This document shows positions 7,607 through 40,449 of a DNA stretch of 64,000 nucleotides, piece by piece (the stretch's first letter is position 1; every line of letters begins with the position of its first letter). The notes beneath the pieces were generated by a model. It did not search any database and was not told the DNA's origin. It saw only the letters and a list, made by a program, of their open reading frames with translations. The DNA is from a virus. The stretch lies in the IMG/VR virus record IMGVR_UViG_3300036852_000503; one strand, written 5' to 3'. A program made the position numbers and the translations under genes.

Positions 7607-7615
7607 CGGTAACTT

Positions 7616-7923: not shown

Positions 7924-7941
7924 CATCATTATGGACTCAAC

Positions 7942-7977
7942 GGGCGGACCCCGCGGCGTGAACCGCGGGGCCCGCCC
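7942..7977 (-). terminator. Strong GC hairpin terminator
   Basis: GGGCGGACCCCGCGG (7942-7956) / CCGCGGGGCCCGCCC (7963-7977): 14 bp plus one mismatch, 6-nt loop, 12 nt after the stop of the 7990..8364 gene. Confidence 0.6.
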
Positions 7978-7989
7978 TCGGGTGGTACG

Positions 7990-10155: not shown

Positions 10156-10192
10156 GGCACGAGCGAGACAATCTTACGTGAACTACGTTCAC

Positions 10193-10540: not shown

Positions 10541-11192
10541 CCTCAGACCTCCCCGGCCCTTCCTTGTCTACTACGCCGATGTCGTCTACGGCCGGCGCCG
10601 ACCACGTGCCCTCGACGTCGACGGGAGCCCCGGAGGGCGACTCCAGGACCAGGAGCTGCCGGTGCGCCTCCTCGAACGCGGCCACGCGCCGGGCCGGTTC
10701 CAGGTTCAGCTTGTCGATGACGCGCCCGATCACCTCCGCGACGATCTGACCCTCGAGTTCGACCTGCCGCACCATCCGCTCGGCGACGCCCGCGTTGACG
10801 GCCGCCGCGGCCGTGCGGGTCATGAGCGCGCGCTCCTTCCGCGACTCGGTCATCCAGCGGAGCACCGCGACCGTGTCCGGGTCGCCGCCGTCGTTCTCGC
10901 CCGTGGTCGCGTCGCGCACCGCGCGCTCCAGCTGGGCGTCGACCCACGCCACGCGGCCCGCCGCGAGCCGCACGCCCTTGAGTAGGGCCTCCCACGGCGT
11001 GACGTTCAGCTCGCGGGCCACGTCCAGTGCCATCATCCACGCCCCGTGTCTCGTCGCCGTTCCGTGCTTCTTACACGGGCCGTAACCCGCGTGCCGGGTG
11101 AACTCGCCCGCCAGGTATCTACAGCGTGTACCTCGCCGTGTGGTCTCGCCGCACCTCAGCGCGAGACGGCGTGCGGTGCGGCGAGCGTTCAT
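10524..11192 (-). CDS. Hypothetical protein with an N-terminal Cys cluster (222 aa)
   Basis: Track ORF 10524..11429 trimmed to ATG 11192; MNARRTARRLALRCGETTRRGTRCRYLAGEFTRHAGYGPCKKHG... The upstream part of the ORF is R/W-rich junk. Confidence 0.65.
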   Translation of the reverse strand: MNARRTARRLALRCGETTRRGTRCRYLAGEFTRHAGYGPCKKHGTATRHGAWMMALDVARELNVTPWEALLKGVRLAAGRVAWVDAQLERAVRDATTGENDGGDPDTVAVLRWMTESRKERALMTRTAAAAVNAGVAERMVRQVELEGQIVAEVIGRVIDKLNLEPARRVAAFEEAHRQLLVLESPSGAPVDVEGTWSAPAVDDIGVVDKEGPGRSEDDDTA

Positions 11193-11206
11193 AGATCCAT
11201 AATAGC

Positions 11207-11431
11207 CTACCGATCCGTAAGTGCCCGCTCGACGACGTCGGCGAGTCGGTTGATCGCCGTCGCGATTTCGTGGTTCGCCTCGGCGATGTTGTCGAGCGCC
11301 TGGCCTACGGGATGCGGTGAACCAGATTGTGACTTTCCACCAAGCGCGGCGGCTAGTCCTTCGATGGCGCCCATGTGTCCACCCGGCCCGTGGAACGAAA
11401 GTTCGCGGATCGCGTCGCCAACGTCGCACAT
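11207..11431 (-). CDS. Hypothetical protein (74 aa)
   Basis: Track ORF 11207..11464. ATG 11431 follows AGGAAG, and GC3 rises only after it. Confidence 0.6.
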   Translation of the reverse strand: MCDVGDAIRELSFHGPGGHMGAIEGLAAALGGKSQSGSPHPVGQALDNIAEANHEIATAINRLADVVERALTDR

Positions 11432-11468
11432 AAGATCACTTCCTACTCGCTCGGCATTCGTCACTGTA

Positions 11469-11765
11469 GATCTTGCTCAAGATCAGGTACACTAGCCGTT
11501 CCTACTGTACCTGAGCACGTGTTGTGGATCTTGGGTACAGTGGAACAGTAACTTTTCGGTTAGCCATGTAGTAGACGGTGGGCGGTAGGTGCGCGTCGTA
11601 CGGGCATTTAATGGTTATAGCCAGTTTCTACTGTACCTACTGTTCTACTGTACCCTACCGTTACCCGATCCACTGTTTACCGTTGTCAAAGATTCATCAT
11701 TATTCATTTACGCAGGTACACTGACACCCGATCCTACCGTTCCGCATCATACCTCCTACTGTACC
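11469..11765. repeat. Iteron-like repeat field in an AT-richer intergenic region
   Basis: CTACTGTACC at 11502, 11628, 11645 and 11756. Variants: CTACTGTTC at 11637, CCACTGTTTACC at 11670, inverted GGTACAGTGG at 11534 and GGAACAGTAAC at 11542. 16-nt palindrome GATCTTGCTCAAGATC at 11469-11484. TACCGTT occurs 3 times. Confidence 0.7.
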
Positions 11766-11788
11766 CGGCCTAGTGAACCCGGTTCAAC

Positions 11789-11815
11789 GGAACAGTAAGC
11801 GTCGCTTACTGTTCC
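11789..11815 (-). terminator. 27-nt perfect palindrome downstream of the primase/helicase gene
   Basis: GGAACAGTAAGCG-T-CGCTTACTGTTCC, 8 nt after the stop at 11824. It shares the ACTGT core with the iteron-like repeats. Confidence 0.55.
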
Positions 11816-11823
11816 GGCGCCTC

Positions 11824-16368: not shown

Positions 16369-17109
16369 ATGACCACCAAGTTGCACACGGTTCTCGCGCT
16401 CCTCAAGGGAACGCGCCAGCGTGCCTACGCGGCGAACGCGGAGCTGCGCAAGACCGCCAAGAAGAACGACCTGTACGCGGGCATCGCCCGGCGGTACCAG
16501 CCGCGCAAGGAGGACGGCGACACGCTGCCGGAGGAGTCCACGCTCGTCCAGCAGGACGCGGGCGACATCCTGGAGCAGTTCGTCGCGAACCAGGTCAAGC
16601 TGTGGGACCTGACGGGCACGATGGAGGCGACGAGCGGCGTCGCCCGCGCGGACATCATCACCGCCAACAACACCGTGCTGGCGACCGACGTCCCGGCCAC
16701 GTTCATGCTCTTTCTCGAGCGTCAGCTGGACGACGTACGGACGTTCATCAACGACATCCCGACTCTCAACCCGGCCGAGGTTTGGCACACCGACCCGAGC
16801 GGGACGTGGGCGACGGAGCCGTTCAAGACGGTGCGGACCAAGAAGATCCCCCGGAATCACGTGATCGCGCCGGCCACCGACAAGCACCCGGCGCAGGTCC
16901 AGGTGTTCACCGAGGACGAGATCGTCGGCGACTGGACCACGATCAAGTACTCCGGCGCGCTGGCGGCCGGGCACAAGCGCGAGATCATCGACCGGATCGA
17001 CGCGCTCAAGGACGCGGTCAAGTCGGCCCGCGAGCGCGCGAACGAGGCGGAGGTCGTGGAGGTACGCGTGGCGGCACGCCTGTTCGACTACCTGCTCGGT
17101 GGCTCGTAG
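16369..17109 (+). CDS. Hypothetical protein (246 aa)
   Basis: Track ORF 16252..17109 trimmed to ATG 16369 (GAGGGAC upstream); MTTKLHTVLALLKGTRQRAYAANAELRK... Confidence 0.75.
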   Translation: MTTKLHTVLALLKGTRQRAYAANAELRKTAKKNDLYAGIARRYQPRKEDGDTLPEESTLVQQDAGDILEQFVANQVKLWDLTGTMEATSGVARADIITANNTVLATDVPATFMLFLERQLDDVRTFINDIPTLNPAEVWHTDPSGTWATEPFKTVRTKKIPRNHVIAPATDKHPAQVQVFTEDEIVGDWTTIKYSGALAAGHKREIIDRIDALKDAVKSARERANEAEVVEVRVAARLFDYLLGGS

Positions 17110-17203: not shown

Positions 17204-17281
17204 GGCACGGTAGCTCAACGGTAGAGCAACGAGCGGCGGGAGTCGCTCTTACGGTTCCAGGTTCGAGTCCTGGACGTGCCG
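17204..17281 (+). tRNA. tRNA-like gene with a non-canonical anticodon arm (identity undetermined)
   Basis: Acceptor GGCACGG/ACGTGCC (6 of 7 bp). D-arm GCTC-AACGGTA-GAGC. T-arm CCAGG-TTCGAGT-CCTGG. Between them are 28 nt instead of about 22: a 5-7 bp stem (GAGCG/CGCTC core) with an 8-nt loop GCGGGAGT, and a 6-nt variable region. Confidence 0.45.
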
Positions 17282-17329
17282 CGCAGCACTAGACACAGAC
17301 GCAGTGACAGTGAAAGACAGATCGGAAAA

Positions 17330-17595: not shown

Positions 17596-17667
17596 TACAT
17601 CAAAGCTCAATGGTCGAGCAACTGACTTCTAATCAGTGTGAAGCGGGTTCGATTCCCGCTGATGTCA
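17596..17667 (+). tRNA. tRNA-Arg (anticodon TCT)
   Basis: Acceptor TACATCA/TGATGTC (6 bp plus a 1-72 mismatch). D-arm GCTC-AATGGTC-GAGC. Anticodon arm ACTGA-CTTCTAA-TCAGT. Variable GTGAA. T-arm GCGGG-TTCGATT-CCCGC. Discriminator A; no encoded CCA. Confidence 0.85.
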
Positions 17668-17956: not shown

Positions 17957-18153
17957 GAACGTGTGGGTACGCGGGGATCCGCGACGCCGCCGAGAGTGCA
18001 GCCGTCGCGTTTCACGCGGTGGCCGAGTCGTGCCGTGGTACCGGCACGCCGCTCGGCACGGCGAGCGCGCTGCGAACTGCCAGCGTCGCGCTGGCGGGCA
18101 TGGCCGACGAGTTCACGTCCCTGCACGACGCGATCACCGCGGCCGGTCGGTAG
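17953..18153 (+). CDS. Hypothetical Ala-rich protein (66 aa)
   Basis: Track ORF; ATGA coupling to the upstream gene. Confidence 0.6.
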   Translation: MRTCGYAGIRDAAESAAVAFHAVAESCRGTGTPLGTASALRTASVALAGMADEFTSLHDAITAAGR

Positions 18154-19118
18154 TGCTCCTACTAGTCGACGGTGCGGACTGCGTCGCCAAGTCGACGCTC
18201 GTCCACCGGCTCGTCGACGCGATCACGGCGCGCGAGGCCGACGGTCGACTCGACGTCAGGCACGCCGGGCCGCCGACGAGCCATCCTCTGGACGAGTACG
18301 AGACGCCGCTCCTGGACTACCGCCCGGGAACCGGTCGGCACGTCGTCTGCGACCGTTGGCACCTCGGGGAGGCGGTCTACCCGGCTGTGTTCGGGCGCCC
18401 CACCAAGTTCGACGACGCCGTGCGACTCCACGTGGACCTATTCCTCCGGTCGCGCGGCGCGTTGGTCGTCGTGGTCACCGCGCGCGCCACGCGCGTCCAG
18501 CAGTGCATCGAGGAGCGCGGCGACGACCTGGTCACGTCCGACATGGTCCACGCGATCCAGTCGGGCTTCACCGACGCCCTGCGGATGAGCCTGGTGCCGT
18601 TCGTCGTCGTCAACGGCTACGAGGTGACCGACGACGACGTCCGGCTCATCATCGAGCGCGCCGACGCCGAGGCGCGCGGCGCCGCGCGGCTCAACCAGTT
18701 CACGACGTACGTCGGACCGGCGCGCCCCGCGACGCTCCTCCTGGGCGACGTGCGCCACGGGTCTGACGGCGACCCGGGTGACCTGCGACCCGCGTTCATG
18801 CCGTACCCGGCGACGTCGGGGCACTACGCGCTCGGCGAGGTCGCGCGCCGGTGGCCGATCACCGCGCTGGCGGGTCTGGGCATCGCGAACGCGTGCGACG
18901 TCGACGACCCGGTCGAGCTGCGCGCGGCGCTGGGCGACCCGGTCACGGTCACGCTCGGCCGCAACGCCCAGCGGCGACTACCCGGGATGGCGCGCGAGTT
19001 GCCGCACCCGCAGTGGGTCCGGCGTTTTCAACACCGGAGCGGCGACGCGTACGCCGCCATGCTGCTCGGTGAACCCATTCCCGACGTGTACTCGCAGGTC
19101 GAGCTCACGCTACCGTAA
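18153..19118 (+). CDS. P-loop nucleotide/nucleoside-monophosphate kinase-like domain fused to a UDG-superfamily-like domain
   Basis: Track ORF 17946..19118 trimmed to GTG 18153 (TAGTG overlap). N-terminal LLLVDGADCVAKSTLVHRLV with a DRWH-type segment (CDRWHLGEAVY). The C-terminal half has LLLGDVRHGSDGDPGDLRPAFMPYPATSGHYAL and LPHPQWVRR, resembling UDG family-4 motifs A and B. Confidence 0.5.
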   Translation: MLLLVDGADCVAKSTLVHRLVDAITAREADGRLDVRHAGPPTSHPLDEYETPLLDYRPGTGRHVVCDRWHLGEAVYPAVFGRPTKFDDAVRLHVDLFLRSRGALVVVVTARATRVQQCIEERGDDLVTSDMVHAIQSGFTDALRMSLVPFVVVNGYEVTDDDVRLIIERADAEARGAARLNQFTTYVGPARPATLLLGDVRHGSDGDPGDLRPAFMPYPATSGHYALGEVARRWPITALAGLGIANACDVDDPVELRAALGDPVTVTLGRNAQRRLPGMARELPHPQWVRRFQHRSGDAYAAMLLGEPIPDVYSQVELTLP

Positions 19119-19131: not shown

Positions 19132-20016
19132 TTGGAGCTCAAGCTCACCGACATGCGCGACGACTACGTGGGTCTCGTGCGGCACGTGATCAGGAACGGC
19201 GCGGAGGTCTCGGCGCGCGGCATCGCGACGCGCGAGCTGACCGCCGTGACGCTGGTCATCGAGAACGTCCTGGAGCCGCTCCTGCCGATCGGCGTCGGCC
19301 GCGGCGTGAACACCCGACTGGCGGCGCTCGAGGCGCTCCAGCTCATCTCGGGCGTCTCCCGGTTCGACCTGGTCCAGGTCGTCGCGCCGGGCTTCGCGCG
19401 CGTCCTGGTGGACCAGGCCGACCCCGACTACGGCGCGTACGGCCCTCGGATCGTCCAGCAGGTCACCGACTGCGTCGACCTGCTCGAGCGCGACCCGTCG
19501 AGTCGGCAGGCCGTGTGCGTCATCTGGAACGAGAAGGACCTACGGCACGCGGGCGACAAGCCCTGCACGGTGTTCATGCAGTTTCTCGTGCGCAAGAGCC
19601 CCACCGGCGAGTTCGACGCGCTGGAGCTGCACACGCACATGCGCAGTCAGGACGTCTGGCTCGGCGTGCCGTACGACGTGTTCATGTTCACCCAGTTGCA
19701 GCACACGGTGGCGAGTGAGCTTCGGCTACCGGTGGGTAGGTTCGTGCACCACGTGACCAGCCTGCACATCTACGAGCGCGACCTGGACGCCGCGACCAAG
19801 TTGCACGGCGTGACGGGACCGCTCGCCGACGAGCTGCCCTGCGGCGTCGTCCCGGCGCGCGACGGCGCCGGTGACGACGGCGACGACGGCTTCAACGTCG
19901 CGGCGTACCTCCTGGAGGGCAACAGCACGACGGCGGAGGACGCGGCCAACCCCTGGTACGCGGTGCAGCTCGACGAGATCGAGAAGCAGCTGGCGACGGA
20001 GCACGACGGTGGGTGA
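19132..20016 (+). CDS. Thymidylate-synthase-family pyrimidine C5 methylase or hydroxymethylase
   Basis: TTG 19132 after TAAGGAGG. Motifs: SRQAVCVIWN, catalytic DKPCTVFMQFLV, MRSQDVWLGVPYDVFMFTQL, SLHIYERD. Substrate and chemistry cannot be read from the sequence. Confidence 0.8.
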   Translation: MELKLTDMRDDYVGLVRHVIRNGAEVSARGIATRELTAVTLVIENVLEPLLPIGVGRGVNTRLAALEALQLISGVSRFDLVQVVAPGFARVLVDQADPDYGAYGPRIVQQVTDCVDLLERDPSSRQAVCVIWNEKDLRHAGDKPCTVFMQFLVRKSPTGEFDALELHTHMRSQDVWLGVPYDVFMFTQLQHTVASELRLPVGRFVHHVTSLHIYERDLDAATKLHGVTGPLADELPCGVVPARDGAGDDGDDGFNVAAYLLEGNSTTAEDAANPWYAVQLDEIEKQLATEHDGG

Positions 20017-20029
20017 CGACCGACCCTCG

Positions 20030-20497
20030 ATGGACCAGACGCTCATGCGGATGGCGGTGCTGATGGCCGATCGCGCCACGTGCTCGCGCGCCCAGGTCGG
20101 CGCCGTCATCGTCAAGGAGACGCGGCCGATCTCCAGCGGCTACAACGGCACCGCCGCCGGTCTTCCCCACTGCGACCACTCGTGCAACTGCGGGTATCCC
20201 GGTGAGGGCGGTAAGTACTTTGACGGCAAGCACCTGTCAAACTGCCGCACACTGGTACCCTGTGATGAAGCTATTCACGCCGAGGCCAACGCCGTCGCGT
20301 TTGCGGCCAAGCACGGCGTCTCGACGGACGGCGCCACGCTCTACACGACAATGACTCCCTGTCTAGCGTGCGCTAAGCTGATCGCGAACGCCGGCATCAC
20401 GCGCGTCGTCGCCGCGTCGGCGTACCGCGACGACAGCGGTATGCTGCTGCTCGAGCGGCTGGGCATCCAGGTGCAGAGTGGGTCACTTTACCTCTAG
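20030..20497 (+). CDS. Deoxycytidylate (dCMP) deaminase
   Basis: ATG 20030; zinc motifs HAEANAV and TPCLACAKLI; GYNG. Confidence 0.85.
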   Translation: MDQTLMRMAVLMADRATCSRAQVGAVIVKETRPISSGYNGTAAGLPHCDHSCNCGYPGEGGKYFDGKHLSNCRTLVPCDEAIHAEANAVAFAAKHGVSTDGATLYTTMTPCLACAKLIANAGITRVVAASAYRDDSGMLLLERLGIQVQSGSLYL

Positions 20498-28136: not shown

Positions 28137-28688
28137 ATGGATCGACGTCGGCACGTCGTGTTCGACCTCGACGGCGTCCTACTGGACACCGCCGACATCA
28201 TCACGGTCGCGTACATGCGTGCCGGCGTCGACCCACCTCACAACATTCTCGAGTGCGAGGGCACGAACTGGCTCGCTGGGCAGGTCCAGGGTGACGAGCT
28301 CACGCGGGTGCGCCGGCACAAGAACGAGTTCTACCTCGACATGCTGCGACGCTTCGAGGCCGCGCACATGCCCGCGTTCACCACGGTGTGGGACTTGCTT
28401 GACCGTGGGTATCGGCTGCACGTGCTCACCGGCGCGCCGAGCGGCGCGATCGAGGCGCTTCGCGAGGGTTACTACGGCGAGAGCAACTGGCCCTTCACGT
28501 CCGCGTTCGACGGCGTCACCACGCCCGAGAAGATGAAGTTGCTTGCCCGCCTTGGTGACGGCGGGGTGTATATTGACGACCAGGCGCGGCTCGTCGATGT
28601 TCCCGACGGCTGGCGCTTCATCCACTACACCGGTCAGAGCGCGGACGAGTTGCTCCGGCTGGTCGAGCACGGCGAGAGGAAAGTTTAA
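28137..28688 (+). CDS. HAD-superfamily hydrolase/phosphatase
   Basis: Motif I VVFDLDGVLLDT; motif III/IV region GGVYIDDQ. Confidence 0.75.
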   Translation: MDRRRHVVFDLDGVLLDTADIITVAYMRAGVDPPHNILECEGTNWLAGQVQGDELTRVRRHKNEFYLDMLRRFEAAHMPAFTTVWDLLDRGYRLHVLTGAPSGAIEALREGYYGESNWPFTSAFDGVTTPEKMKLLARLGDGGVYIDDQARLVDVPDGWRFIHYTGQSADELLRLVEHGERKV

Positions 28689-29579
28689 GTGCGACTCTGT
28701 GTAGGTGCGGTATCGCAGCGGGTCGTCGAGGAGGCGGCCAAGCTCCAGGTGCACCAGGTCGTCGCGTCGCGGCGTCAGGTGGACGTCGGCGGGGGTTACA
28801 CCGGCTACGACCAGACGACGCTGGTCGACACGGTCAAGCGGTTGAGCGAGGGTAACACGAAGGTGGTGCGTGATCACGGCGGGCCGCTCCAAGGTGGCAC
28901 CGACGACGACGGCCGCGCGTCGCTGGATGCCGACGTTCAGGCCGGGTTCGACGGCCTGCACCTCGACGTCTGCCAGTTGCCGTACGACCGGCAGGTGACC
29001 GAGCTGCTCGAGCTGCTCGAGACGTACGGCAACCTGGGCCTGACCATTGAGATCGGTGGCGAGCACGACACCCAGGAGCACAACGCGCTGCTGCTCGGCG
29101 CCGCGCTCGCGTTCGGCGTCGAGATCGACTACGCGGTAGTGGGCTTCGGTTCGCGTGTCTGGGCCGACCGACAGTACGGCGCGCCGACCTACGCGGGCAA
29201 GCTTATGCTCACCAGCGCGCGCGCGAACGCGCTCGGCGTCAAGACTAAGATTCACAACGTGGACTGGGTCGGCGGCCGAGTCGCGAACTACGCGGGTACA
29301 GTCGACGCGTACAACATCGCGCCCGAGTTCGGCGCCGTCGAGATCGACGCGCTGCTCACCGTTCTCAACTCGGACGTGGCGTACGGGCTGCTCGAGTTCG
29401 CGCACAAGAGTAAACTCTGGACCCGCTGGTTCAACGCGAACGAGGGCACGTGGTTCGACCGTGCCAAGTGCGCGCTGCGCTACCTCCAGTGGTCCAGTGA
29501 GGTGCAGGATGTCACGCTCAGCCACGACGCCGACCAGTTTGTGAGGATGATGATCCGTGATGCAATTCAGCGTGGGTGA
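28689..29579 (+). CDS. TIM-barrel sugar-phosphate enzyme-like protein (tagatose/fructose-bisphosphate-aldolase-like)
   Basis: 296-aa ORF, GTG start 1 nt after the HAD stop; SRRQVD...GYTG...VVRDHGGP...HLDV...EIGGEH pattern. Family assignment is tentative. Confidence 0.4.
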   Translation: MRLCVGAVSQRVVEEAAKLQVHQVVASRRQVDVGGGYTGYDQTTLVDTVKRLSEGNTKVVRDHGGPLQGGTDDDGRASLDADVQAGFDGLHLDVCQLPYDRQVTELLELLETYGNLGLTIEIGGEHDTQEHNALLLGAALAFGVEIDYAVVGFGSRVWADRQYGAPTYAGKLMLTSARANALGVKTKIHNVDWVGGRVANYAGTVDAYNIAPEFGAVEIDALLTVLNSDVAYGLLEFAHKSKLWTRWFNANEGTWFDRAKCALRYLQWSSEVQDVTLSHDADQFVRMMIRDAIQRG

Positions 29580-29949
29580 GCTGTTCGACATCCTACTCGC
29601 CGGCGAGGTGACGCTCACCTACAAGCCGTGGGGTAGCGAGCGGACGGTGGCCACCGAGCACTTCCTGCTCAAGCTGATCGACGTGCACGCCGGCGAGCGG
29701 ACGTCGCTTCAGCACCACGTCAGGAAGTATGAGATCCACTGGATCATGGGTGGCGACGGCACCATCGAGGGTACGCCCGACGACGACCTCTTCCGACCGC
29801 GACCGTCCGGTGCCTACCCGGTCTACCCCGGCACGGTGCACCGCGCGGTGGGACCGCTGACCATTCTCGAGATCAGCACCAACCACCCGGACGACGTGGT
29901 CCGACACGAGGACGACTACGGTCGCTCGGCGACAGACGGCGGTGAGTGA
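29557..29949 (+). CDS. Cupin-domain protein (sugar-phosphate isomerase/epimerase-like)
   Basis: 130 aa; cupin motifs HAGERTSLQHHVRKYEIHWIMGGDG and PGTVHRAVGP. Confidence 0.6.
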   Translation: MMQFSVGELFDILLAGEVTLTYKPWGSERTVATEHFLLKLIDVHAGERTSLQHHVRKYEIHWIMGGDGTIEGTPDDDLFRPRPSGAYPVYPGTVHRAVGPLTILEISTNHPDDVVRHEDDYGRSATDGGE

Positions 29950-29952
29950 TCG

Positions 29953-31470
29953 ATGACCGCGTTCGTGATCGTCGCCGCTGGGCTCGGTACCCGCGTGGGC
30001 CGGGTCGGCGAGTCGTTGCACAAGTCGCTGATTCCCCTCGCGCAGCGCGCCGTGCTGTCGCACCTCTTCGACCTGGCGCCTCGCGACGCGCGACTCGTCG
30101 TCTGCGTGGGTCACCGCGCCGGTCAGATCCGTGACTACGTGGCCTTGGCGCACCCGCAGCTCGCGGTTGAGTTTGTCGACGTGCCCGACTGGAACGGGCC
30201 TCACGGAGGACCTGGGGCGTCGCTACTGGCCGCTCGCGAGGCGGTGGGCGACGACGACGACCTGATCGTCACGTCGTGCGACACGCTCTGGGGCCGTGAC
30301 CAGGGTCTCTGGCACGACTCGAGTTCGTGGGTCGCCGTCGCGCCCATTCCCGCGGGCACCGACCCGATCCGCTGGACGCGCGTGGAGCACAACTCCGATC
30401 GCGTGTCCACGATCTACGACAAGCGTCACGGCGGTAGCGGCAACGAGCCGGCGTGGACCGGTCTGGCGCGCGTCGCGGCGCGGGACCTGCCCACGTTCTG
30501 GTCCGGGTTGACGAGCGCGCGACCGGCGCACGAGTTGCAGATCGTAAGCGGACTCGACGAGATCAGACACAACCTGCGGGTCAAGTGGATCGACTGGACC
30601 GACGTCGGCGACGAGACCGCGTACGCGAGCGCCGTCGCGCGCGTGAGCGGTTACGACTTCGTCAAGTACGACCAGGCCACGTACGTGCTGCCCACCGAGG
30701 GCCGGGTCGTCAAGTTCAACGCCGACCCGGAGGTGATCACTCACCGAATTCACCGCGCCGCGCACCTCACGACGATGGTGCCGACTCCGATCGTGTCGGG
30801 CAACGACGCCACGCTCATGGCGCACCCGTACGTTCCCGGCGTCACCGCGTACGACGCGGTCGAGCTGCACGACGTCGAGCTCACGCACCGCATTCTCGAC
30901 TGGTTCGACGCGACGGTGGGCAGCTCGACGGCGCACGCGCCGCTACCCGGTGCGCGCGGCACACGGCAGAGTTTGAACGAGTTCTACGTGAACAAGACCC
31001 TCGGGCGCGTCGCGCAGCTTCCCGCGCGGCTGCGGGCTTCCGCGCGCGATGCGGTGGACGCGGTCGACTGGGTCGCGCTGCTGGACGGCGCGGTCTGGGG
31101 GACGCCGCACGGCGACTTCAACCACGGCAACATCATCGTGACGCCGGGTGGCGAGCTGGTCGGCATCGACTGGCGCGAGAACTTCGCGGGCAGCTACTAC
31201 GGCGACATCCGCTACGACCTGGGCAAGCTGCTCGCCGGAACGGTGGTGCACTGGCAGCGTGCCCAGTGGGGCGACTTCCGACCCTGGGTTGAGGGTGAGA
31301 AGCACGCGCTGGCGATCCGCGAGTTCGTCGAGCGCATGCCCGGCGTGGACGTCCGCGACATCGAGATCATCGGCGCGCTGTCACTTCTCAACTGCGCCCC
31401 ACTCCACGCGGCGCCGCTCGACGAGATCCTCGTCGCGCGGGGCTGCGCGTGGCTCCAGCGGGTGCTGTGA
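29953..31470 (+). CDS. Bifunctional sugar-1-phosphate nucleotidyltransferase / APH-choline-kinase-fold sugar kinase
   Basis: 505 aa. N-terminal VIVAAGLGTRVGRVGESLHKSLIPLA (NTP-transferase G-loop). C-terminal HGDFNHGNIIV...GIDWRE (kinase catalytic loop plus DxD-like). Confidence 0.7.
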   Translation: MTAFVIVAAGLGTRVGRVGESLHKSLIPLAQRAVLSHLFDLAPRDARLVVCVGHRAGQIRDYVALAHPQLAVEFVDVPDWNGPHGGPGASLLAAREAVGDDDDLIVTSCDTLWGRDQGLWHDSSSWVAVAPIPAGTDPIRWTRVEHNSDRVSTIYDKRHGGSGNEPAWTGLARVAARDLPTFWSGLTSARPAHELQIVSGLDEIRHNLRVKWIDWTDVGDETAYASAVARVSGYDFVKYDQATYVLPTEGRVVKFNADPEVITHRIHRAAHLTTMVPTPIVSGNDATLMAHPYVPGVTAYDAVELHDVELTHRILDWFDATVGSSTAHAPLPGARGTRQSLNEFYVNKTLGRVAQLPARLRASARDAVDAVDWVALLDGAVWGTPHGDFNHGNIIVTPGGELVGIDWRENFAGSYYGDIRYDLGKLLAGTVVHWQRAQWGDFRPWVEGEKHALAIREFVERMPGVDVRDIEIIGALSLLNCAPLHAAPLDEILVARGCAWLQRVL

Positions 31471-32948
31471 TGAGCCTGCGCATTGGGTACGGTAAGTTCG
31501 GGCGCAGCATGGCGTTTGACCGCAACAAGTGGGGCTTCCAGGGGGACGCGGAGGCACCTAACCTACTCATGCGGCTCGCCCGACGCAACCCCGACGTGAC
31601 GTGGGTGATCGTCGGTAAGAACACCGGCACCGGCTGGCAGGGTGAGCAGAACATCGAGAACCCGTGGTCCGACGGCTCGTGGACGAGTAAGATCAGGGGC
31701 CAGCCGTACAACAACATCGGTGCCGGCCAGACGCCGCCGCCCGACGAGCTGTTCATCCCGTATCGCAAGGCCGGCGGTGGCTTCTGGCTCAACGGCGATG
31801 CGTACCGACGCGACCTCGCGATCGCCGACGTGATCGCCGGTCTCGACGGCGTCGTGATGCACATGGGGCAGCACGGCACGAGTCACGTGCCGATCCCGCA
31901 GTCGACGTCCACGTGGGCCGACGCGGCGCGTCAACCCGAGCTGATCACGTCGCCGCAGCTCTGGTCGCGCAACTACGGCGAGTACGCGGCGCGCGGACTC
32001 AACGCGCTCGGCGATCGGACCAACGGCGAGGCGCCGGTGGTCTGGCTGGTGACGGACCCGCGCAACTACCTCAAGGCGCGCGATCTCAAGTGGCCCAGCG
32101 GCTCGCGCGAGGTGCTCGCGCAGTACGAGTTCACGCGCACCACCCGCCACGAGCGCTACCTGGACCCGCGCGCGCCCGATGAACTCGGGTGGGACAACTG
32201 CGCCGTCGACCGCGACGGCGAGGTGTGGGTGGCCGACAACAGCTACGTGCACGCCGGACTTGAGCTGATGATACTCCCCGACGACTGGGAGACGTGGGGT
32301 CCAGCGGGATTCCACGAGCGACTGCCGACGGGCGTCGCGTCCACGTCGTTCAGCGACGGCCGCATCGGGCGTGAGCTGCGGCGGTCCGAGCTGATTCGCG
32401 ACTACCTGCTCGCCGCGTTCCCCGATGCCGAGATCTTCGGCAAGTGGGATGCGGTGAGCGAGGCGGACATTCTTCCGCGCGTGGTGGTGCGCAACAAGCC
32501 GGACGAGTTCGCCAGCCTACTCAACCGCTGGCGCGTGACGCTCGCGATGCCGGCGCTCGGGACACCCTGGACGGTCGCCAAGGTGTTCCAGTGCTTCGCC
32601 GCGAACGTCGCGTGCTTCATGGTCGAGCAGCTCGACGACCAGGGGTGGCTCCTACCCACCCGCCGGCGAGGTCCTGGTACCCAGCAGGTGGGCAATGTGT
32701 TCGGCACGGACATACCGCTGTGGTCGATCAGGAACGACTGGACACCTCGTGACCTGATGCTCGCGAGTTGGCTGCGCGTGGAGTCGCCGGTCGAGTTCGA
32801 GCGGGGCGCCCGTCAGGTGAGTCATCGTGAGTCGCTGTGGGAGTGGATCGTTCAGGCCCAGCGCGCGCTGCTGCAACGTCGCTGGGATGAGCACTTGACC
32901 GAAGTTTCGATCGAGCGACTGCTCGGCATCAATGGAGAAGACAGGTGA
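31470..32948 (+). CDS. Hypothetical 492-aa protein (candidate transferase of the cluster)
   Basis: Track ORF 31449..32948. ATG 31470 overlaps the upstream TGA. No motif recognised with confidence. Confidence 0.7.
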   Translation: MSLRIGYGKFGRSMAFDRNKWGFQGDAEAPNLLMRLARRNPDVTWVIVGKNTGTGWQGEQNIENPWSDGSWTSKIRGQPYNNIGAGQTPPPDELFIPYRKAGGGFWLNGDAYRRDLAIADVIAGLDGVVMHMGQHGTSHVPIPQSTSTWADAARQPELITSPQLWSRNYGEYAARGLNALGDRTNGEAPVVWLVTDPRNYLKARDLKWPSGSREVLAQYEFTRTTRHERYLDPRAPDELGWDNCAVDRDGEVWVADNSYVHAGLELMILPDDWETWGPAGFHERLPTGVASTSFSDGRIGRELRRSELIRDYLLAAFPDAEIFGKWDAVSEADILPRVVVRNKPDEFASLLNRWRVTLAMPALGTPWTVAKVFQCFAANVACFMVEQLDDQGWLLPTRRRGPGTQQVGNVFGTDIPLWSIRNDWTPRDLMLASWLRVESPVEFERGARQVSHRESLWEWIVQAQRALLQRRWDEHLTEVSIERLLGINGEDR

Positions 32949-33217
32949 GCGACGACGTGATCGACCCGACCGAGTTGCCCGGTCGAGTGACCGGCTATCG
33001 ACCGCAGACGTCGGCAGCCGTCACGTTGGTGAACAGGATCAAGAACTACGAGCGCGACGTCGCGATCCTGTGGGCGCAGGTCAACCGGCACGACGGCGTC
33101 GACGCCGACCAGCGTGAGCTCTCGCTCGCGCGCGATCACTTCGAGGACGGCTTCATGCACCTAGTGCGCGCCGTGTTCAAGCCCGTTGACCCATTCGTGG
33201 AGGCTCTCGGTGGCTGA
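32945..33217 (+). CDS. Hypothetical protein (90 aa)
   Basis: Track ORF; GGAGAAG RBS; GTG start. Confidence 0.65.
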   Translation: MSDDVIDPTELPGRVTGYRPQTSAAVTLVNRIKNYERDVAILWAQVNRHDGVDADQRELSLARDHFEDGFMHLVRAVFKPVDPFVEALGG

Positions 33218-33791
33218 CTGGAAGTGGTTGGAGTCGACCCGTCGACTCCAGGAGGAGTCGTTTGGCGTCGTCTACCCGATCGAGGGTGAGCAGCTCGCGG
33301 ACTACGTGGTGTGGAACCACACTGCGCTCGTCTCGGAGGCCACCGAGCTGCTGAACGAGTTCGGCTGGAAGCCGTGGGCGTCGCCTCGTGGCTGGGTCAA
33401 CCGTCAGTTGGCGCTGAAGGAGGCCGTGGACGTCGCGCACTTCCTGGCGAACATCATGTGCGCGATCGACGTGACGGACGATGAGTGGGAGGCCGCGTAC
33501 CGCTCGAAGCAGGGCGTCAACGCGACACGCCAGCGCGAGGGATACGATGGAATATCGGGGAAGTGCCCGGGCTGTAAGCGTGCGTACGACGACGACATCC
33601 ACTGCAAGCCCGGCTACCTTCAGAAGAGTGCCACGGGAGTTGTTTGCATCAAGGTAGGCGCGCAGTGCAGTGAGCAGACGTGCCCGGGATGCGGAACCGA
33701 CTACGCGGACACGGTTGACTGCTACACGGCGAACGATCCCGACAACGTAAGTCGTAAGATTTACTGTGGCAAATTGCGCGAGAACATCTAG
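33210..33791 (+). CDS. All-alpha NTP pyrophosphohydrolase (MazG / dimeric dUTPase-like) with a C-terminal Cys-rich extension
   Basis: Track ORF 33186..33791, likely GTG 33210; EATELLNEFGWKPW and KEAVDVAHFLANIM resemble the metal-binding helices. The C-terminus has CPGC...C and CPGC...C. Confidence 0.55.
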   Translation: MADWKWLESTRRLQEESFGVVYPIEGEQLADYVVWNHTALVSEATELLNEFGWKPWASPRGWVNRQLALKEAVDVAHFLANIMCAIDVTDDEWEAAYRSKQGVNATRQREGYDGISGKCPGCKRAYDDDIHCKPGYLQKSATGVVCIKVGAQCSEQTCPGCGTDYADTVDCYTANDPDNVSRKIYCGKLRENI

Positions 33792-33803: not shown

Positions 33804-34996
33804 GTGTACCGATACGTCTCGTGTCAGACGTTCGCGGGAGGTTTCGACGTAGGTATGGTGCAGGCAGGCTTCGAGTTGGTGCACAAGGTCGAGCAGCACG
33901 GTGGGTTCGGTATGCCCAACTGCCTGGCGAATCGCGACATTCTTGGGCACAACTGGACATTCGAGATCGGTGACTACAAGACGTGGTCCGCGCCTGAAGT
34001 GGAGGTACTGGCAGGGAACCCTCCCTGCTCTTGACTGGCTTTTCAGCTATGACCGACAGGAAGTACCGCGGCATCGACGCCAAGGTGAATTCGTGCATGT
34101 GGGTGCTCATGGAGTACGCCGCGCGCGTGAAGCCGCAGGTCATCGTCATGGAGTCGGTGCGGCAGGCGTACACCGGCGGCCGCGCGATGATGACCGCGCT
34201 GCGCGACGACCTCGAGGCGAAGAGCGGGTTGAAGTACGACCTCTACCACGTCATGCAGGACGCGATCGAGCTGGGCGGCCCGGCGGTGCGCAAGCGTTAC
34301 TTCTGGGTGGCGTCGCAAATCCCCTTCGGCGTGGAGTTCCCCGTCATCACGCGCACGCCGACGCTCCACGACGTGATCGGCGACATCGAGCCGCTCGCCG
34401 AGACGTGGCAGCTCCAGCCGTACCGGCGACCGCCCTCCTGGTGGGCGAGCGCGCCTCGGTCGACGTCGGGTGCGGTCGACGGGCACATGACGCGCACCGG
34501 CATCGCGCACCGGCGAACGCTCGACCTCCTGACGCTGGGTGAGCAGCTCGGCGAGCCGTGGCCGCAAGGGTGGCACGTCGGCAAGTTCGCGCAGCACATC
34601 TACGACCGGCACGGCTGCCTACCCGACTCGTGGCTCCACCTGAAGAGCAAGTTGCTCGGGAACGACTTCCACATGGGTTACATCTCCGTGACCAGGTGGG
34701 ACGACAACCGCTCGGCGCGCGTGATCACCGGCGGCGCGCTCGACCTGGTGCTCCACCCCACGCAGCCCCGCTTCATCTCGCACCGTGAGGTCGCGCGCGT
34801 CATGGGCTTCCCGGACGACTGGCGCATCCTACCGCTGCGGGACCAGAGCAGCCTGAAGGCGACGTGGGGCAAGGGCATCACGACGCACTGCGGCCGCTGG
34901 ATCGGCGAGCAGGCGCGCGCGGCGCTGGACGGCGCACCCAACTCGTTCGTGGGCACGCCCGTCGGCGATCGTGAGTGGCTGATCAAGCGCAAGTGA
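33804..34996 (+). pseudogene. DNA (cytosine-5) methyltransferase interrupted inside catalytic motif IV
   Basis: Frame 1 (33804-34034): motif I FAGGFDVG ... GNPPCS then TGA at 34032. The -1 frame (from 34031): TGFSAMTDRKYRG...QVIVMESV (motif VI-like)... to 34996. Deleting 5 nt (TTGAC, 34031-34035) would give a contiguous GNPPCSGFS. Confidence 0.75.
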
Positions 34997-39372: not shown

Positions 39373-40449
39373 CTAGGCGTTGACCTCACTGTTGACACGC
39401 CGACGATCCGCGGCGACCGCGTCCGACCACGACTCCCACCACTTCCAGGCGTGATCCTCGATCCGAAGCGTCGCCGCGACCGCACGGCCGGCTTCGCTCA
39501 GCTCGGACCGTCGCGCCGCGTTCTCGCGAAGCGACTTGATCGTCCGGTACCAGTCGTTGGGTCGCTCAGCCAGTAGGCCGCAACCCAGCTCGTGCAGCCG
39601 CCGGTACTCCGTGCGCGGCGACGCGACCCACGGTACGCCGACCGCGGCCAGCTCGAGCGGCTTGAGCCACGACTTGGACGCGTTGAACACCGTGTCGGCG
39701 AGCGGCGTGATGCCCACGCCGATGTGCTCGGCGAGCACGCGCGGCCAGTCCAGCAGCTCGACGGCCACGCGCAGCTGCGTCACGTAGTCGTCGCTTGGTA
39801 GGCCGAATGCCTTGCCCACGCCGGGCGACGTGCTGGTGACGTGCAGCCGCGCGCCCTCGTGCACCAGCCGTGCGACGGAGCTGCCCACGACGTCGGGGTC
39901 GTTCGGGTGAGACCCCAACGACGCGGGCCAGCCGATCACGCTGGAGTCGACGTGACGCACGTCGTAGTAGTGCGCCGCCAGGTAGTTCGGCAGCACACGG
40001 CCCCGGCCGTGCGCCGCGTAGCGCTTGACCAGCGCCGGCGTGGTCGCGGTGACCAGCGACGCGTGACGACACGCGTCGTCCAGGTTGCGCCACGAGTGCT
40101 CACCCTGGTTGCGTGGGTGCAGCATTCGCCACGCCGGGTTGTCCGGGTGGATGGTGCCGAGGTCGTCGTCCACGTCGATCACCACGGTGACGCCCTGCCC
40201 GCGCAGCGCGCGCACGGCCTGCGCCATGTACTTGTGCGTCACACGCTGGAGCACCACAACGTCGGTGCCCTCGGGAATGTCAACGTTGACCACGCGGTCG
40301 TCGCGGTCGTCGATGCGGAGGAGCAGCTTGCGCGACTCCTGCTCGATGACTGTGACGTCGTGGCCCGCCGCGCGGAGTACCTCGGCGGGCCAGATGACGC
40401 GGTGGTGACCGCAGCCGTAGTGATCGGCGGGAAAGACGAGTACCCTCAC
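39373..40449 (-). CDS. Glycosyltransferase (GT-B-like)
   Basis: 358 aa; MRVLVFPADHYGCGHHRVIWPAEVLRAAGHDVTVI N-terminus and two-lobe layout typical of phage/actinobacterial glycosyltransferases. Judged by eye. Confidence 0.55.
   Translation of the reverse strand: MRVLVFPADHYGCGHHRVIWPAEVLRAAGHDVTVIEQESRKLLLRIDDRDDRVVNVDIPEGTDVVVLQRVTHKYMAQAVRALRGQGVTVVIDVDDDLGTIHPDNPAWRMLHPRNQGEHSWRNLDDACRHASLVTATTPALVKRYAAHGRGRVLPNYLAAHYYDVRHVDSSVIGWPASLGSHPNDPDVVGSSVARLVHEGARLHVTSTSPGVGKAFGLPSDDYVTQLRVAVELLDWPRVLAEHIGVGITPLADTVFNASKSWLKPLELAAVGVPWVASPRTEYRRLHELGCGLLAERPNDWYRTIKSLRENAARRSELSEAGRAVAATLRIEDHAWKWWESWSDAVAADRRRVNSEVNA

Follow-up and report, generated by a model that had tools for sequence, protein, structure and literature searches.

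What are five predicted sugar-metabolism genes doing among the replication and nucleotide-metabolism genes of a phage? The question is raised by a 64,000-nucleotide stretch of viral DNA (hereafter the window), the source of which is an uncultured, siphovirus-like actinobacterial phage. Few phage counter-defences against restriction enzymes and CRISPR nucleases are as effective as the glycosylation of cytosines, which has also supplied enzymes in wide use, T4 BGT among them. To our knowledge, it is known nearly entirely from phages of Proteobacteria.

Organization of the sugar cassette

A first-pass annotation of the sequence had described five tightly packed or overlapping genes, encoding a HAD phosphatase, a TIM-barrel aldolase-like protein, a cupin, a kinase–nucleotidyltransferase fusion and a 492-residue protein, located between recombination genes and an NTP pyrophosphohydrolase plus DNA methyltransferase. 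All five open reading frames are present on the + strand exactly where it had placed them (28137-32948; Table 1), separated in gene order by a 0-nt gap, a 23-nt overlap, a 3-nt gap and a 1-nt overlap, and an alternative GTG start at 31449 would lengthen the last product to 499 residues. Pfam and profile matches agree with the domain assigned to each of the first four proteins. The domains of the flanking genes likewise confirm the described setting, with SNF2, PD-(D/E)XK, AAA_24 and DUF669 upstream and a dUTPase_2/MazG-like protein followed by a C5-MTase downstream. As an independent Logan assembly yielded identical gene calls for the cassette, and many viral contigs carry homologs (40-65% amino-acid identity) in the same order, the five reading frames represent real genes. 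Homologs of the glycosyltransferase (GT), the GatZ-like protein and the kinase were found on contigs of equal length, e.g. 92,405, 94,938, 85,202 and 39,350 bp.

Table 1 Features of the sugar cassette and the associated nucleotide-metabolism genes.
Feature	Position	Strand	Remarks
YorR/thymidylate-kinase-type nucleotide kinase with ~140-aa C-terminal α/β domain	18153..19118	+	putative kinase for modified dCMP
Thymidylate-synthase-family enzyme, dCMP-hydroxymethylase signature	19132..20016	+	putative 5hm-dCMP synthase
dCMP deaminase	20009..20497	+	PF00383, E 5e-26
HAD-superfamily enzyme, β-phosphoglucomutase-like	28137..28688	+	183 aa; putative sugar-phosphate phosphatase or phosphomutase
GatZ/KbaZ-like class-II-aldolase-fold TIM barrel	28689..29579	+	296 aa; putative ketose-phosphate C4 epimerase or aldolase
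Cupin, type-II phosphomannose-isomerase-like	29557..29949	+	130 aa; putative aldose/ketose-phosphate isomerase
Nucleotidyltransferase (N-terminal) and APH-fold sugar kinase (C-terminal) fusion	29953..31470	+	505 aa; predicted bifunctional, AfhE-like architecture
GT-B-fold glycosyltransferase, family without Pfam model	31470..32948	+	492 aa; putative DNA (5hmC) glycosyltransferase
All-α NTP pyrophosphohydrolase (dimeric-dUTPase/MazG-like)	33186..33791	+	PF08761, E 9e-10; candidate dCTPase/dUTPase biasing the dNTP pool

Predicted structure of the 492-residue protein

In agreement with the earlier remark that this protein carries no recognisable motif, we obtained no sequence match in Pfam, NCBIfam, PHROG or PDB. 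Its AlphaFold (AF2) model (pLDDT 93.2, pTM 0.93) consists of two Rossmann-like α/β domains with an inter-domain cleft and matches structures across GT-B families, identifying the protein, on the basis of the model, as a GT-B glycosyltransferase. The structure search that the first-pass annotation had recommended for this gene returned 71 PDB matches at E<=1e-3 (Foldseek), GT-B enzymes making up 50/50 of those listed, with phage DNA glucosyltransferases as the nearest structures. The best PDB structure was T4 DNA β-glucosyltransferase (BGT; 1nzd, E 7e-8), a likeness at the level of the fold only (TM 0.45-0.69), and the generic GT4 enzymes BshA, PimA and MshA scored nearly as high. Among the BFVD structures, the best matches were two phage proteins, A0A8S5UMU4 (1.5e-17) and A0A8S5ME62 (2e-14), the latter named 'DNA beta-glucosyltransferase', and the remaining ones followed far behind at 6e-8 or weaker.

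The GT family profile showed no sequence homology to T4 BGT (hhalign probability 0.2%, E 0.25). Membership in the sequence families of BGT (GT63) or AGT (GT72) was rejected on this value and the lack of a Pfam match. The family comprises at least 234 metagenomic homologs, with zero relatives in 185,579 prokaryotic species genomes and zero in 50,697 deposited phage records, and is thus purely viral or metagenomic.

Predicted sugar-activation enzymes of the cassette

For the fusion protein, Pfam delineated a PF12804 nucleotidyltransferase (NTase) domain (residues 5-111) and a PF01636 APH domain (residues 264-439), and profile searches matched GlmU, HddC (structures 5xhw and 6jq8) and IPCT pyrophosphorylases. 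The motifs GxGxR..K and HGD..N/D-W-R are invariant. The order of an N-terminal NTase and a C-terminal kinase mirrors AfhE, RB69 gp52:53 and DLP3 gp82, where AfhE is the NTase–kinase enzyme making UDP-arabinose for DNA arabinosylation in RB69/DLP3/HY126 (PMC13326640). Within a 9-protein database, BLASTP gave weak matches to RB69p053 (NTase; residues 1-142, E 5e-5) and, collinear with it, RB69p052 (kinase; residues 359-442, E 3e-4). With a marginal similarity of 27-28% over about 90-145 residues, the predicted AfhE-type layout, i.e. an NDP-sugar pyrophosphorylase followed by a kinase, is one of architecture and distant homology only. Among relatives, the fusion adjoins the GT wherever both occur.

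The three smaller proteins resemble sugar-phosphate enzymes. The HAD protein matches PF00702 weakly, has invariant DxDG and DD motifs, and its profile best matched β-phosphoglucomutases in the PDB (4gib, 6.5e-6; 1lvh, 1.4e-4). A capped, β-PGM-like protein of 183 residues, it differs from the small AfhF/GmhB phosphatases (128 residues for the AfhF type), and BLAST revealed no similarity to RB69p051. The GatZ-like protein itself lies below Pfam detection; 16 of its 30 homologs match PF08013 (GatZ_KbaZ-like, best E 9e-7), and the profile matched the PDB entries 2fiq (GatZ, E 7e-5) and 3txv (4.5e-4), with the RDHGGP...HiD region aligning to 2fiq. Residues D62-H63, H91, D93, E125 and H189 are invariant. 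The protein, a putative epimerase or aldolase, is about 120 residues shorter than GatZ. GatZ/KbaZ enzymes catalyze the epimerisation of Fru-6-P to Tag-6-P (PMC11907403). The cupin matched PF01050 (E 8.4e-8), the C-terminal region of TIGR01479 GMP_PMI and the cupin-type PDB entries 7zvy and 7zvm. No SIS-type isomerase was found in the cassette or among the genes called at ~10.6-43 kb, and no BLAST match to RB69p055 was obtained. This sugar-phosphate branch is new, as is the GT family.

The upstream kinase–synthase–deaminase module

About 11 kb upstream lies a gene of the thymidylate synthase (TS) family (PF00303, E 1.6e-26), whose product has MilA CMP hydroxymethylase as its best PDB sequence match (4.7e-19) and aligns to T4 gp42 with an hhalign probability of 98.8%. 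The residues L143D, C146, D169 and N177D (E. coli ThyA numbering) are invariant in 30 subfamily members. According to the reported signature rules, N177D specifies the dCMP substrate and, together with L143D/E and a retained D169, marks a hydroxymethylase, whereas D169N marks a 5-hydroxylase (PMC13326640). Position 169 is Asp in the TS homolog and its close homologs and Asn in RB69 gp48. Because D169 is kept, the residue pattern predicts a dCMP hydroxymethylase and not a 5-hydroxylase; the assignment as a 5hodCMP synthase was rejected, as D169N is not present.

In 81/81 related loci, the kinase gene immediately precedes that of the TS homolog, and the latter is followed by the dCMP deaminase gene in 75/81. 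The kinase profile matched YorR (2axp, E 1.6e-18), in line with the best Foldseek matches of its AF2 model (pLDDT 92; 3kb2/2axp), and the protein shares 26% identity with the RB69p045 'nucleotide kinase'. The YorR family also holds DLP3 gp78 and RB69 gp45, kinases of cytosine-modification clusters (PMC13326640). The first-pass annotation had pointed to a ThyA-family gene, a dCMP deaminase and a kinase/UDG-like fusion in the same direction, and this holds for all three genes; the UDG-like character of the fusion's second half was not established, as only 2/39 members matched PF03167, at E 0.06. On two long IMG/VR contigs, the TS homolog and the GT occur together. Since the kinase–TS–deaminase module occurs throughout this large phage group (81/81 loci), even in members with an empty slot in place of the cassette, the link between TS and GT is not exclusive.

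Proposed pathway and its alternatives

Five genes that make an NDP-sugar and transfer it, as for hydroxymethyl-pyrimidine DNA, was the logic seen in the cassette at the outset, and its computationally testable steps held. Inferring the acceptor and the sugar, we propose that the GT transfers the sugar to 5hmC in DNA and consider that the cassette probably attaches a rare hexose or heptose to the 5hmC of phage DNA. The order of steps is suggested by analogy. Based on the residue signatures, the deaminase, the ThyA homolog and the YorR-type kinase, helped by the pyrophosphohydrolase, would provide 5-hydroxymethyl-dCMP and subsequently the triphosphate, which phage PolA would incorporate, amounting to a pre-replicative cytosine modification. 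The pyrophosphohydrolase belongs to phrog_18650 ('dUTPase', 1e-32) and matched dimeric dUTPases in the PDB (4dk4, 4e-4), with a weak match to the dCTPase 7mu5 (0.48). In the sugar branch, the domains suggest that the GatZ-like enzyme reconfigures a ketose phosphate, possibly fructose-6-P or sedoheptulose-7-P, by C4 epimerisation or aldol chemistry, and the PMI-like cupin would convert the product into an aldose ω-phosphate. The APH-fold kinase domain would then phosphorylate C1 and the β-PGM-like HAD remove or shift the distal phosphate, leaving a sugar-1-phosphate by a logic like that of AfhE/AfhF for arabinose and HldE/GmhB for heptose. Finally, the N-terminal NTase domain would form the NDP-sugar and the GT-B enzyme attach the sugar to 5hmC at its hydroxymethyl group in double-stranded phage DNA, presumably shielding it from CRISPR and restriction nucleases. 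GT-B DNA glycosyltransferases are, for the most part, linked to thymidylate-synthase-type pathways (bioRxiv 10.1101/2023.12.21.572611).

Several observations weigh against this reading. Generic GT4 enzymes score near T4 BGT, to which hhalign gave only 0.2%; the HAD is not of the AfhF/GmhB type and a SIS isomerase is absent; an intact C5-MTase in GT-bearing relatives would find little substrate if every C were replaced; the TS–GT link is, as noted, not exclusive; and the structural operon holds a second glycosyltransferase that could draw on the NDP-sugar as well.

Glycosylation of the DNA on a different base, either 5-hydroxymethyluracil arising from deaminase action on 5hm-dCMP or a base derived post-replicatively from C5-methylation, appears unlikely. 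The deaminase gene does directly follow the TS homolog, and the C-terminal domain of the kinase has faint UDG-like features, but the TS homolog, with its N177D, L143D and D169 signature, is predicted to act on dCMP and to yield a hydroxymethyl product. For the post-replicative route, MT/5mYOX-dependent glycosylation being a known precedent (bioRxiv 10.1101/2023.12.21.572611), the GT is followed at a distance of 0.9 kb by a C5-MTase, which relatives having the GT keep intact. In this phage, however, it is frameshifted after its catalytic PPCS motif, and no Pfam match to the TET/JBP (5mYOX) family was found in the genes called within ~10.6-43 kb of the window.

Alternatively, the NDP-sugar could be used to O-glycosylate phage proteins, in the virion or elsewhere, as in some mycobacteriophages, through the 492-residue GT and possibly the second glycosyltransferase (39373-40449; phrog_7162, E 5e-31), which ends the structural operon and is conserved among relatives with the cassette. 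We regard this as quite unlikely, and as less likely than DNA glycosylation. The glycosylation GTs of mycobacteriophages sit beside capsid and tail genes, whereas the cassette lies in the replication/nucleotide-metabolism operon, between DUF669 and MazG. Although the protein O-glycosyltransferases OGT, SdgB and XcOGT are among the Foldseek matches listed and the GT has no sequence homology to BGT, its nearest structures are DNA glucosyltransferases, and the NTase–kinase layout, the YorR-type kinase and the hydroxymethylase-type TS fit known DNA-modification clusters.

That the genes are auxiliary metabolic or host-takeover functions, glycosylating a host envelope polymer, lipid carrier or small molecule or redirecting sugar-phosphate pools, is very improbable: the nearest cellular structures to the GT are indeed small-molecule/lipid GT4 enzymes (BshA, MshA, PimA, GlgM) and the GatZ-like, PMI-like and β-PGM-like folds are ordinary in carbohydrate metabolism, but the GT family is missing from the searched prokaryotic genomes, unlike typical envelope GTs and lysogenic-conversion genes, the position of the GT within the DNA-metabolism operon is fixed across divergent phages, and the GT co-occurs with a dCMP-hydroxymethylase-type enzyme.

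Comparison with known systems

The arabosyl-5-hydroxycytosine system of RB69/DLP3/HY126 comprises a 5hodCMP synthase, AfhE, the HAD phosphatase AfhF, an arabinose-5-P isomerase and GT-B arabinosyltransferases (PMC13326640). Both systems have a (here predicted) dCMP-acting ThyA-family enzyme adjoining a YorR/TMPK-like kinase; an NTase plus APH-kinase enzyme, a HAD, a GT-B and an all-α NTP pyrophosphatase among replication genes; and an isomerase that would draw a sugar phosphate out of central metabolism. The phage studied here differs in retaining D169, in its single GT, and in being a siphovirus-like phage of an actinobacterial host and not a member of the Straboviridae. Furthermore, a PMI-like cupin and a GatZ-like TIM barrel replace the SIS-type arabinose-5-P isomerase, implying a different sugar.

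The glucosyl-5hmC system of T4 employs the dCMP hydroxymethylase gp42, the dCTPase gp56, the gp1 kinase and α/β-glucosyltransferases, and it uses host UDP-glucose, encoding no sugar-activation genes. The predicted base chemistry is alike (L143D/D169/N177D as in gp42), as are the dCMP deaminase and the GT-B transferase. In contrast to T4, the cassette has sugar-activation genes, its 492-residue GT shows no homology to BGT (GT63) at the sequence level, a YorR-type kinase with an additional fused domain is present, and the phage lineage carries a C5-MTase.

Rhizobium phage RL38J1 (Pootjesviridae) has a hexosyl-cytosine cluster with a UDP-galactopyranose mutase, its TS being a 5hodCMP synthase (PMC13326640). 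It likewise couples NDP-sugar tailoring to a GT-B and a ThyA homolog adjoined by a thymidylate-kinase-like gene, but it tailors an existing UDP-sugar, whereas the cassette would build its NDP-sugar from a sugar phosphate. In MT/5mYOX(TET) phage clusters, GT-A or GT-B enzymes put glycans on 5hmC (bioRxiv 10.1101/2023.12.21.572611). Partner sugar-tailoring enzymes and a nearby C5-MTase are common to these clusters and the locus described here, where 5hmC is in contrast predicted to arise pre-replicatively via the ThyA homolog and the MTase is frameshifted.

The bacterial NDP-heptose pathway uses the isomerase GmhA, the kinase HldE/HddA, the HAD phosphatase GmhB and the nucleotidyltransferase HldC/HddC. 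The proposed route would follow the same succession, from ketose-P via aldose-ω-P, aldose-1,ω-bisP and aldose-1-P to NDP-aldose, but with a cupin in place of a SIS isomerase, an APH-fold kinase in place of a ribokinase/GHMP type, a β-PGM-like HAD and an additional GatZ-like enzyme.

A hypervariable slot in the replication module

The cassette occupies a hypervariable slot of the replication module, in which relatives carry other NDP-sugar and GT genes. Among relatives, the length of the slot varies between 160 bp and 5.1 kb, with the pyrophosphohydrolase gene as its conserved right-hand border. Some relatives contain only the NTase-APH and GT genes, others HAD, NTase and GT. The slot of DSL-LC01, which parallels the RL38J1 cluster, holds a UDP-galactopyranose mutase (PF03275, 5e-30) next to a protein annotated by the depositor as a GT, which falls outside the GT family of 31470..32948. 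We propose that the minimal functional unit consists of NTase(-kinase) and GT, with HAD, GatZ-like protein and cupin as add-ons changing the sugar made.

These data indicate that a large group of uncultured actinophages shares the base-modification module throughout and has an exchangeable sugar module, and the cassette is most likely a fresh variation on the known phage evasion of host nucleases. More tentatively, as a possible rather than a probable reading, an abundant lineage of uncultured actinophages may diversify the sugar on its 5hmC through a hot-swappable slot in the replication operon, an undescribed NDP-sugar route and a new GT-B family leading to a new base modification. The proposed route would run from the GatZ-like C4 epimerase via the PMI-like cupin, the APH kinase and the β-PGM-like HAD to the NTase, and its product could be, e.g., NDP-talose, a galacto-configured hexose or an epimerised heptose. 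If this is true, one version of the sugar module builds a rare NDP-sugar by an undescribed route and uses a GT family without a Pfam model, providing a new modified nucleoside, a new DNA glycosyltransferase family and a compact, engineerable NDP-sugar pathway, and explaining a possible resistance of such phage DNA to cloning, restriction digestion and sequencing chemistries.

Between the GT and the pyrophosphohydrolase gene, we also observed an Acb2/Tad1-hairpin gene (32945-33217) that the first-pass annotation had missed.

The terminal gene of the cassette encodes a predicted GT-B glycosyltransferase

The first-pass annotation had proposed that five adjacent genes make an unusual NDP-sugar and transfer it to DNA or to virion proteins. 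All five open reading frames were recovered at exactly the annotated coordinates, packed head to tail, and the domain calls for the HAD phosphatase, the TIM barrel, the cupin and the nucleotidyltransferase-kinase were each verified by Pfam, family profiles and motifs. The 492-aa product of the fifth gene, in which no motif had been recognised, likewise gave no family match in any library searched. Its AlphaFold2 model, calculated from a 46-sequence alignment, reached a pLDDT of 93.2 and a pTM of 0.93, and Foldseek, the type of structure search recommended at that stage, returned GT-B glycosyltransferases only among the PDB matches listed. The top match was T4 DNA β-glucosyltransferase (BGT; 1nzd, E 7e-8, TM up to 0.69 on the target), followed by BshA, PimA, MshA and OGT. 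Among viral predicted structures two matches stood far above the rest, an uncharacterised myovirus protein (1.5e-17) and a siphovirus protein named 'DNA beta-glucosyltransferase' (2e-14); the glycosyltransferase of Bacillus phage SP-15 was also matched. Judged by its modelled structure, the 492-aa protein is a glycosyltransferase (GT).

Comparison of the GT profile with T4 BGT by hhalign gave a probability of 0.2%, i.e. no detectable sequence homology, and because this alignment is non-significant we rejected membership in GT63, the family of BGT. The GT is a separate GT-B family, distinct from GT63. Its more than 234 homologs are all metagenomic and none carries a Pfam domain; no relative was found in a search of 185,579 bacterial and archaeal species, each represented by a single genome, nor did tblastn yield a match in deposited phage records. 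The absence of this family from the cellular genomes searched is unusual for glycosyltransferases of envelope or natural-product pathways and fits a virus-specific job.

Coordinates and characteristics of the features described, in window numbering
Feature	Coordinates	Strand	Characteristics
DUF7873 protein	16369-17109	+	PF25283, E 1.8e-84
tRNA-like element	17204-17282	+	ARAGORN 'tRNA-???', anticodon gg; abnormal anticodon loop
tRNA-Arg(TCT)	17596-17667	+	ARAGORN
Kinase fusion	18153-19118	+	321 aa
ThyA homolog	19132-20016	+	
dCMP deaminase	20009-20497	+	
HAD	28137-28688	+	Weak PF00702; DxDG and DD motifs invariant; best PDB profile matches are β-phosphoglucomutases
GatZ-like TIM barrel	28689-29579	+	296 aa; PF08013 (GatZ_KbaZ-like) in 16 of 30 homologs, window copy without Pfam match
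Cupin	29557-29949	+	PF01050, C-terminal phosphomannose-isomerase domain of type-II PMI/GMP enzymes
Nucleotidyltransferase-kinase	29953-31470	+	505 aa; N-terminal MobA-like/GlmU-like sugar-1-P nucleotidyltransferase, C-terminal APH-fold kinase
GT	31470-32948	+	492 aa; GT-B by predicted structure
Acb2/Tad1 hairpin-domain protein	32945-33217	+	90 aa; PF24729, E 3.4e-15
C5-cytosine DNA methyltransferase	33804-34034 and 34031/34049-34996	+	76-aa and 315-321-aa pieces
Second glycosyltransferase	39373-40449	-	358 aa; phrog_7162 'glycosyltransferase', E 5e-31; marginal PF13524

Family profiles were needed for the GT and the TIM barrel, as single-sequence PDB searches of both returned no match. In the profile of the barrel family an RDHGGP...HxD region aligns to E. 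coli GatZ (2fiq, E 7e-5); GatZ and KbaZ epimerise fructose-6-phosphate to tagatose-6-phosphate (PMC11907403). Both phosphatase and mutase activity are conceivable for the HAD. The catalytic motifs GxGxR...K and HGD...N/DWR of the 505-aa fusion are invariant, and tblastn with this protein against deposited phages matched only two marine phages at ~23% identity. At the DNA level, megablast and blastn of the 4.8-kb cluster found no match among 50,697 phage records.

A base-modification module with a hydroxymethylase signature

About 11 kb upstream of the cassette and in the same direction, three genes in a row encode the 321-aa kinase fusion, a ThyA homolog and a dCMP deaminase. In PDB sequence searches the ThyA homolog scores best against the CMP 5-hydroxymethylase MilA and lower against all true thymidylate synthases. 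Residues were numbered by alignment to E. coli ThyA, with the expected R21, E58, C146, R166, S167, D169, N177, H207 and Y209 in register. The window enzyme exhibits L143D, C146, D169 and N177D, which are invariant or nearly so among 30 subfamily representatives. In ThyA homologs N177D selects dCMP, L143D/E admits water and thereby yields a hydroxymethyl instead of a methyl product, and D169N is the hallmark of the RB69 and DLP3 5-hydroxycytosine synthases (Lee et al., NAR 2026, PMC13326640). T4 gp42 aligned to the ThyA homolog in hhalign with 98.8% probability and has the same residues. The L143D/D169/N177D signature together with this alignment predicts 5-hydroxymethyl-dCMP as the product. 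Position 169 is Asn in RB69 gp48 and Asp in the window enzyme, and this retained D169 led us to reject RB69-type 5hodC chemistry.

The N-terminal 170 residues of the kinase fusion form a YorR-type nucleotide kinase (profile match to 2axp, E 1.6e-18; top Foldseek matches 3kb2 and 2axp), with 26% identity to RB69 gp45. To the YorR structural family belongs the 'nucleotide kinase' adjoining the ThyA homolog in DLP3, RB69 and RL38J1 (Lee et al., PMC13326640). The C-terminal ~140 residues were confidently modelled as an α/β domain with conserved GD(V/Q)R and PHPQ(W/Y)VRRF motifs. Of the original kinase/UDG-like assignment the kinase half held; the UDG half stays a weak hint (PF03167 in 2 of 39 members, E 0.06), since whole-chain Foldseek, where the kinase domain dominates the matches, gave the C-terminal domain no assignment. 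Just upstream of this nucleotide-metabolism module lie the tRNA-like element and tRNA-Arg(TCT), and the DUF7873 gene is kept upstream of the kinase and ThyA genes in 9 related loci.

A constant base module and a variable slot in related phages

The window has a G+C content of ~66% and is matched at 99–100% amino-acid identity by a 65.7-kb Logan metagenome contig. It encodes PolA, Prim-Pol/D5, a SNF2 helicase, a PD-(D/E)XK nuclease, an AAA_24 recombinase-like protein, DUF669 and WhiB, with the tail genes on the opposite strand, and is therefore assigned to an uncultured actinobacterial phage. Among deposited records the closest is the metagenome-assembled 'Actinomycetia phage DSL-LC01', whose ThyA homolog shows 40% identity.

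The GT profile retrieved ten IMG/VR loci (L002–L011). In all ten, wherever the sequence covers the flanks, the GT lies downstream of the recombination genes and upstream of the MazG/dUTPase-like and C5-methyltransferase genes, and in nine a nucleotidyltransferase-kinase lies upstream of it, directly or with one or two small ORFs between. The GatZ-like, cupin and HAD genes are present in L005, L008 and L011 and absent from L002, L004, L007, L009 and L010; L003 has the GatZ-like and cupin genes, its sequence starting 40 bp upstream of the former with the HAD not visible. L006 combines the HAD, a stand-alone nucleotidyltransferase, an uncharacterised 371-aa protein and the GT, and two further loci (L032, L033) carry HAD, nucleotidyltransferase and GT.

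A single-sequence search of IMG/VR with the ThyA homolog gave one locus only and an alignment-based search was needed; the resulting profile search yielded 369 viral loci. We examined 81, comprising 80 kept from the profile search and one from the single-sequence search (L014). In all of them the kinase fusion immediately precedes the ThyA homolog, which is followed by the deaminase in 75, by PolA in 79 and by SNF2 in 73. In these loci DUF669 and the MazG-like gene are 160 bp apart where this slot is empty and 0.8, 1.3 or ~2.4 kb apart elsewhere, the spacing reaching 5.1 kb in the window. In DSL-LC01 the slot encodes a protein annotated by the depositor as a glycosyltransferase, a bona fide UDP-galactopyranose mutase (UGM; PF03275, 5e-30) and a further uncharacterised protein; UGM also belongs to the hexosyl-cytosine cluster of Rhizobium phage RL38J1 (PMC13326640). 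The base module is thus shared throughout the lineage, with the slot serving as a variable site for sugar cargo, as would be expected if phages put different sugars on the same modified base.

Two long IMG/VR contigs directly show the GT and the ThyA homolog together. In three large protein searches the GT and GatZ-like match lists had 23 identical contig sizes in bp in common and the GT and kinase lists two (92,405 and 39,350), and these identical sizes support a physical linkage of the three genes beyond IMG/VR.

In the low-GC (46%) freshwater loci L040, L042, L046, L053, L064 and L095 the slot is filled by one or two 336–405-aa paralogs, at least one per locus belonging to phrog_14998, a family of unknown function. 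Slot proteins of the low-GC relatives L064, L053 and L029 have phrog_14998 in common, lack a Pfam match and aligned non-significantly to the GT profile in hhalign. The basis for calling such proteins glycosyltransferases is the DSL-LC01 depositor's annotation only; they may be another undescribed DNA-glycosyltransferase family. In the L029 slot (10160-12695), which also encodes an uncharacterised 415-aa protein and a HAD homolog, the APH-fold kinase (PF01636, E 2.5e-6) stands alone; kinase and nucleotidyltransferase are therefore not always fused. Directly before the nucleotidyltransferase-kinase gene of L002, which lacks HAD, GatZ-like and cupin genes, a Cys/His-rich 151-aa ORF (7546-8001) resembles, by eye, an HNH homing endonuclease, possibly a hint at the way cassettes enter and leave the slot.

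Relation to known cytosine-glycosylation systems

In the RB69/DLP3/HY126 route an isomerase turns ribulose-5-phosphate into arabinose-5-phosphate, the C-terminal kinase of AfhE phosphorylates C1, and, once the HAD AfhF has taken off the 5-phosphate, the N-terminal AfhE domain forms UDP-arabinose, with which GT-B enzymes arabinosylate DNA (PMC13326640). The 505-aa window protein has the same nucleotidyltransferase-kinase order as AfhE and gives weak collinear BLAST matches to both the nucleotidyltransferase and the kinase halves of RB69. In contrast to AfhF, the window HAD is β-phosphoglucomutase-like, and a PMI-like cupin and the GatZ-like barrel stand in place of the SIS isomerase. In its predicted mode of action the system resembles cytosine glycosylation in T4 and RB69, but it is a member of neither system: the GT falls outside GT63, unlike that of T4, the ThyA homolog lacks the D169N of RB69, the HAD is of another type, no SIS isomerase was found in the cassette or among the genes called between ~10.6 and 43 kb of the window, and the GatZ-like enzyme and the PMI-like cupin are additions. 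In the NDP-heptose pathway, too, an isomerase, a 1-kinase, a distal phosphatase and a nucleotidyltransferase act in turn, and the window nucleotidyltransferase profile matches HddC. By parallel with the Afh and NDP-heptose routes, the window enzymes would turn a ketose phosphate into an unusual aldose phosphate by epimerisation and isomerisation, and this product would then be activated. Candidate sugars are a heptose and hexoses of talo, galacto or manno configuration, among which sequence alone does not discriminate.

DNA as the likely acceptor

The five-gene cluster with its domains is confirmed, and its earlier interpretation is supported by a GT-B enzyme with DNA-glycosyltransferase structural neighbours, the hydroxymethylase-type ThyA signature and the AfhE-like fusion. 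We consider it probable that the cassette glycosylates DNA on 5hmC. DNA stays a likely acceptor since this convergent evidence outweighs several contrary points. The GT-B fold as such is unspecific, with small-molecule GT4 enzymes scoring close to BGT; phages whose slot is empty have the ThyA module as well; and the MazG/dUTPase-like pyrophosphohydrolase may act on either dCTP or dUTP. Moreover, GT-bearing relatives keep an intact C5-cytosine methyltransferase, which hints at incomplete replacement of cytosine or at a different site of action for the methyltransferase.

A further contrary point is the second glycosyltransferase, with which the leftward structural operon ends and which could put the same NDP-sugar on virion proteins. 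This enzyme, which is conserved at 43–63% identity in L002, L003 and L009 and has a glycosyltransferase counterpart at the matching place after WhiB in DSL-LC01, could be directed at a virion protein or the cell wall. A TET-type route was considered and is unsupported by the genes called between ~10.6 and 43 kb of the window.

Genes adjoining the cassette

The C5-methyltransferase gene of the window is split by a -1 frameshift right after the catalytic PPCS motif, leaving motifs I and IV on the N-terminal piece. An independent Logan contig (L001) has the same split, and in L002–L009 and DSL-LC01 the gene reads straight through (NPPCSGFS...). A conserved two-subunit enzyme was withdrawn as an explanation, as the junctions of the relatives read through and the frameshift occurs in this phage only; the gene may be a pseudogene, undergo programmed frameshifting or give an enzyme in two pieces. 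Between the GT and the MazG-like gene lies the Acb2/Tad1 hairpin-domain gene, whose product has the fold of phage sponges for CBASS and Thoeris signalling nucleotides. As no homolog was found at the same position in L002–L011, it looks like a recent counter-defence insertion into the same variable slot.
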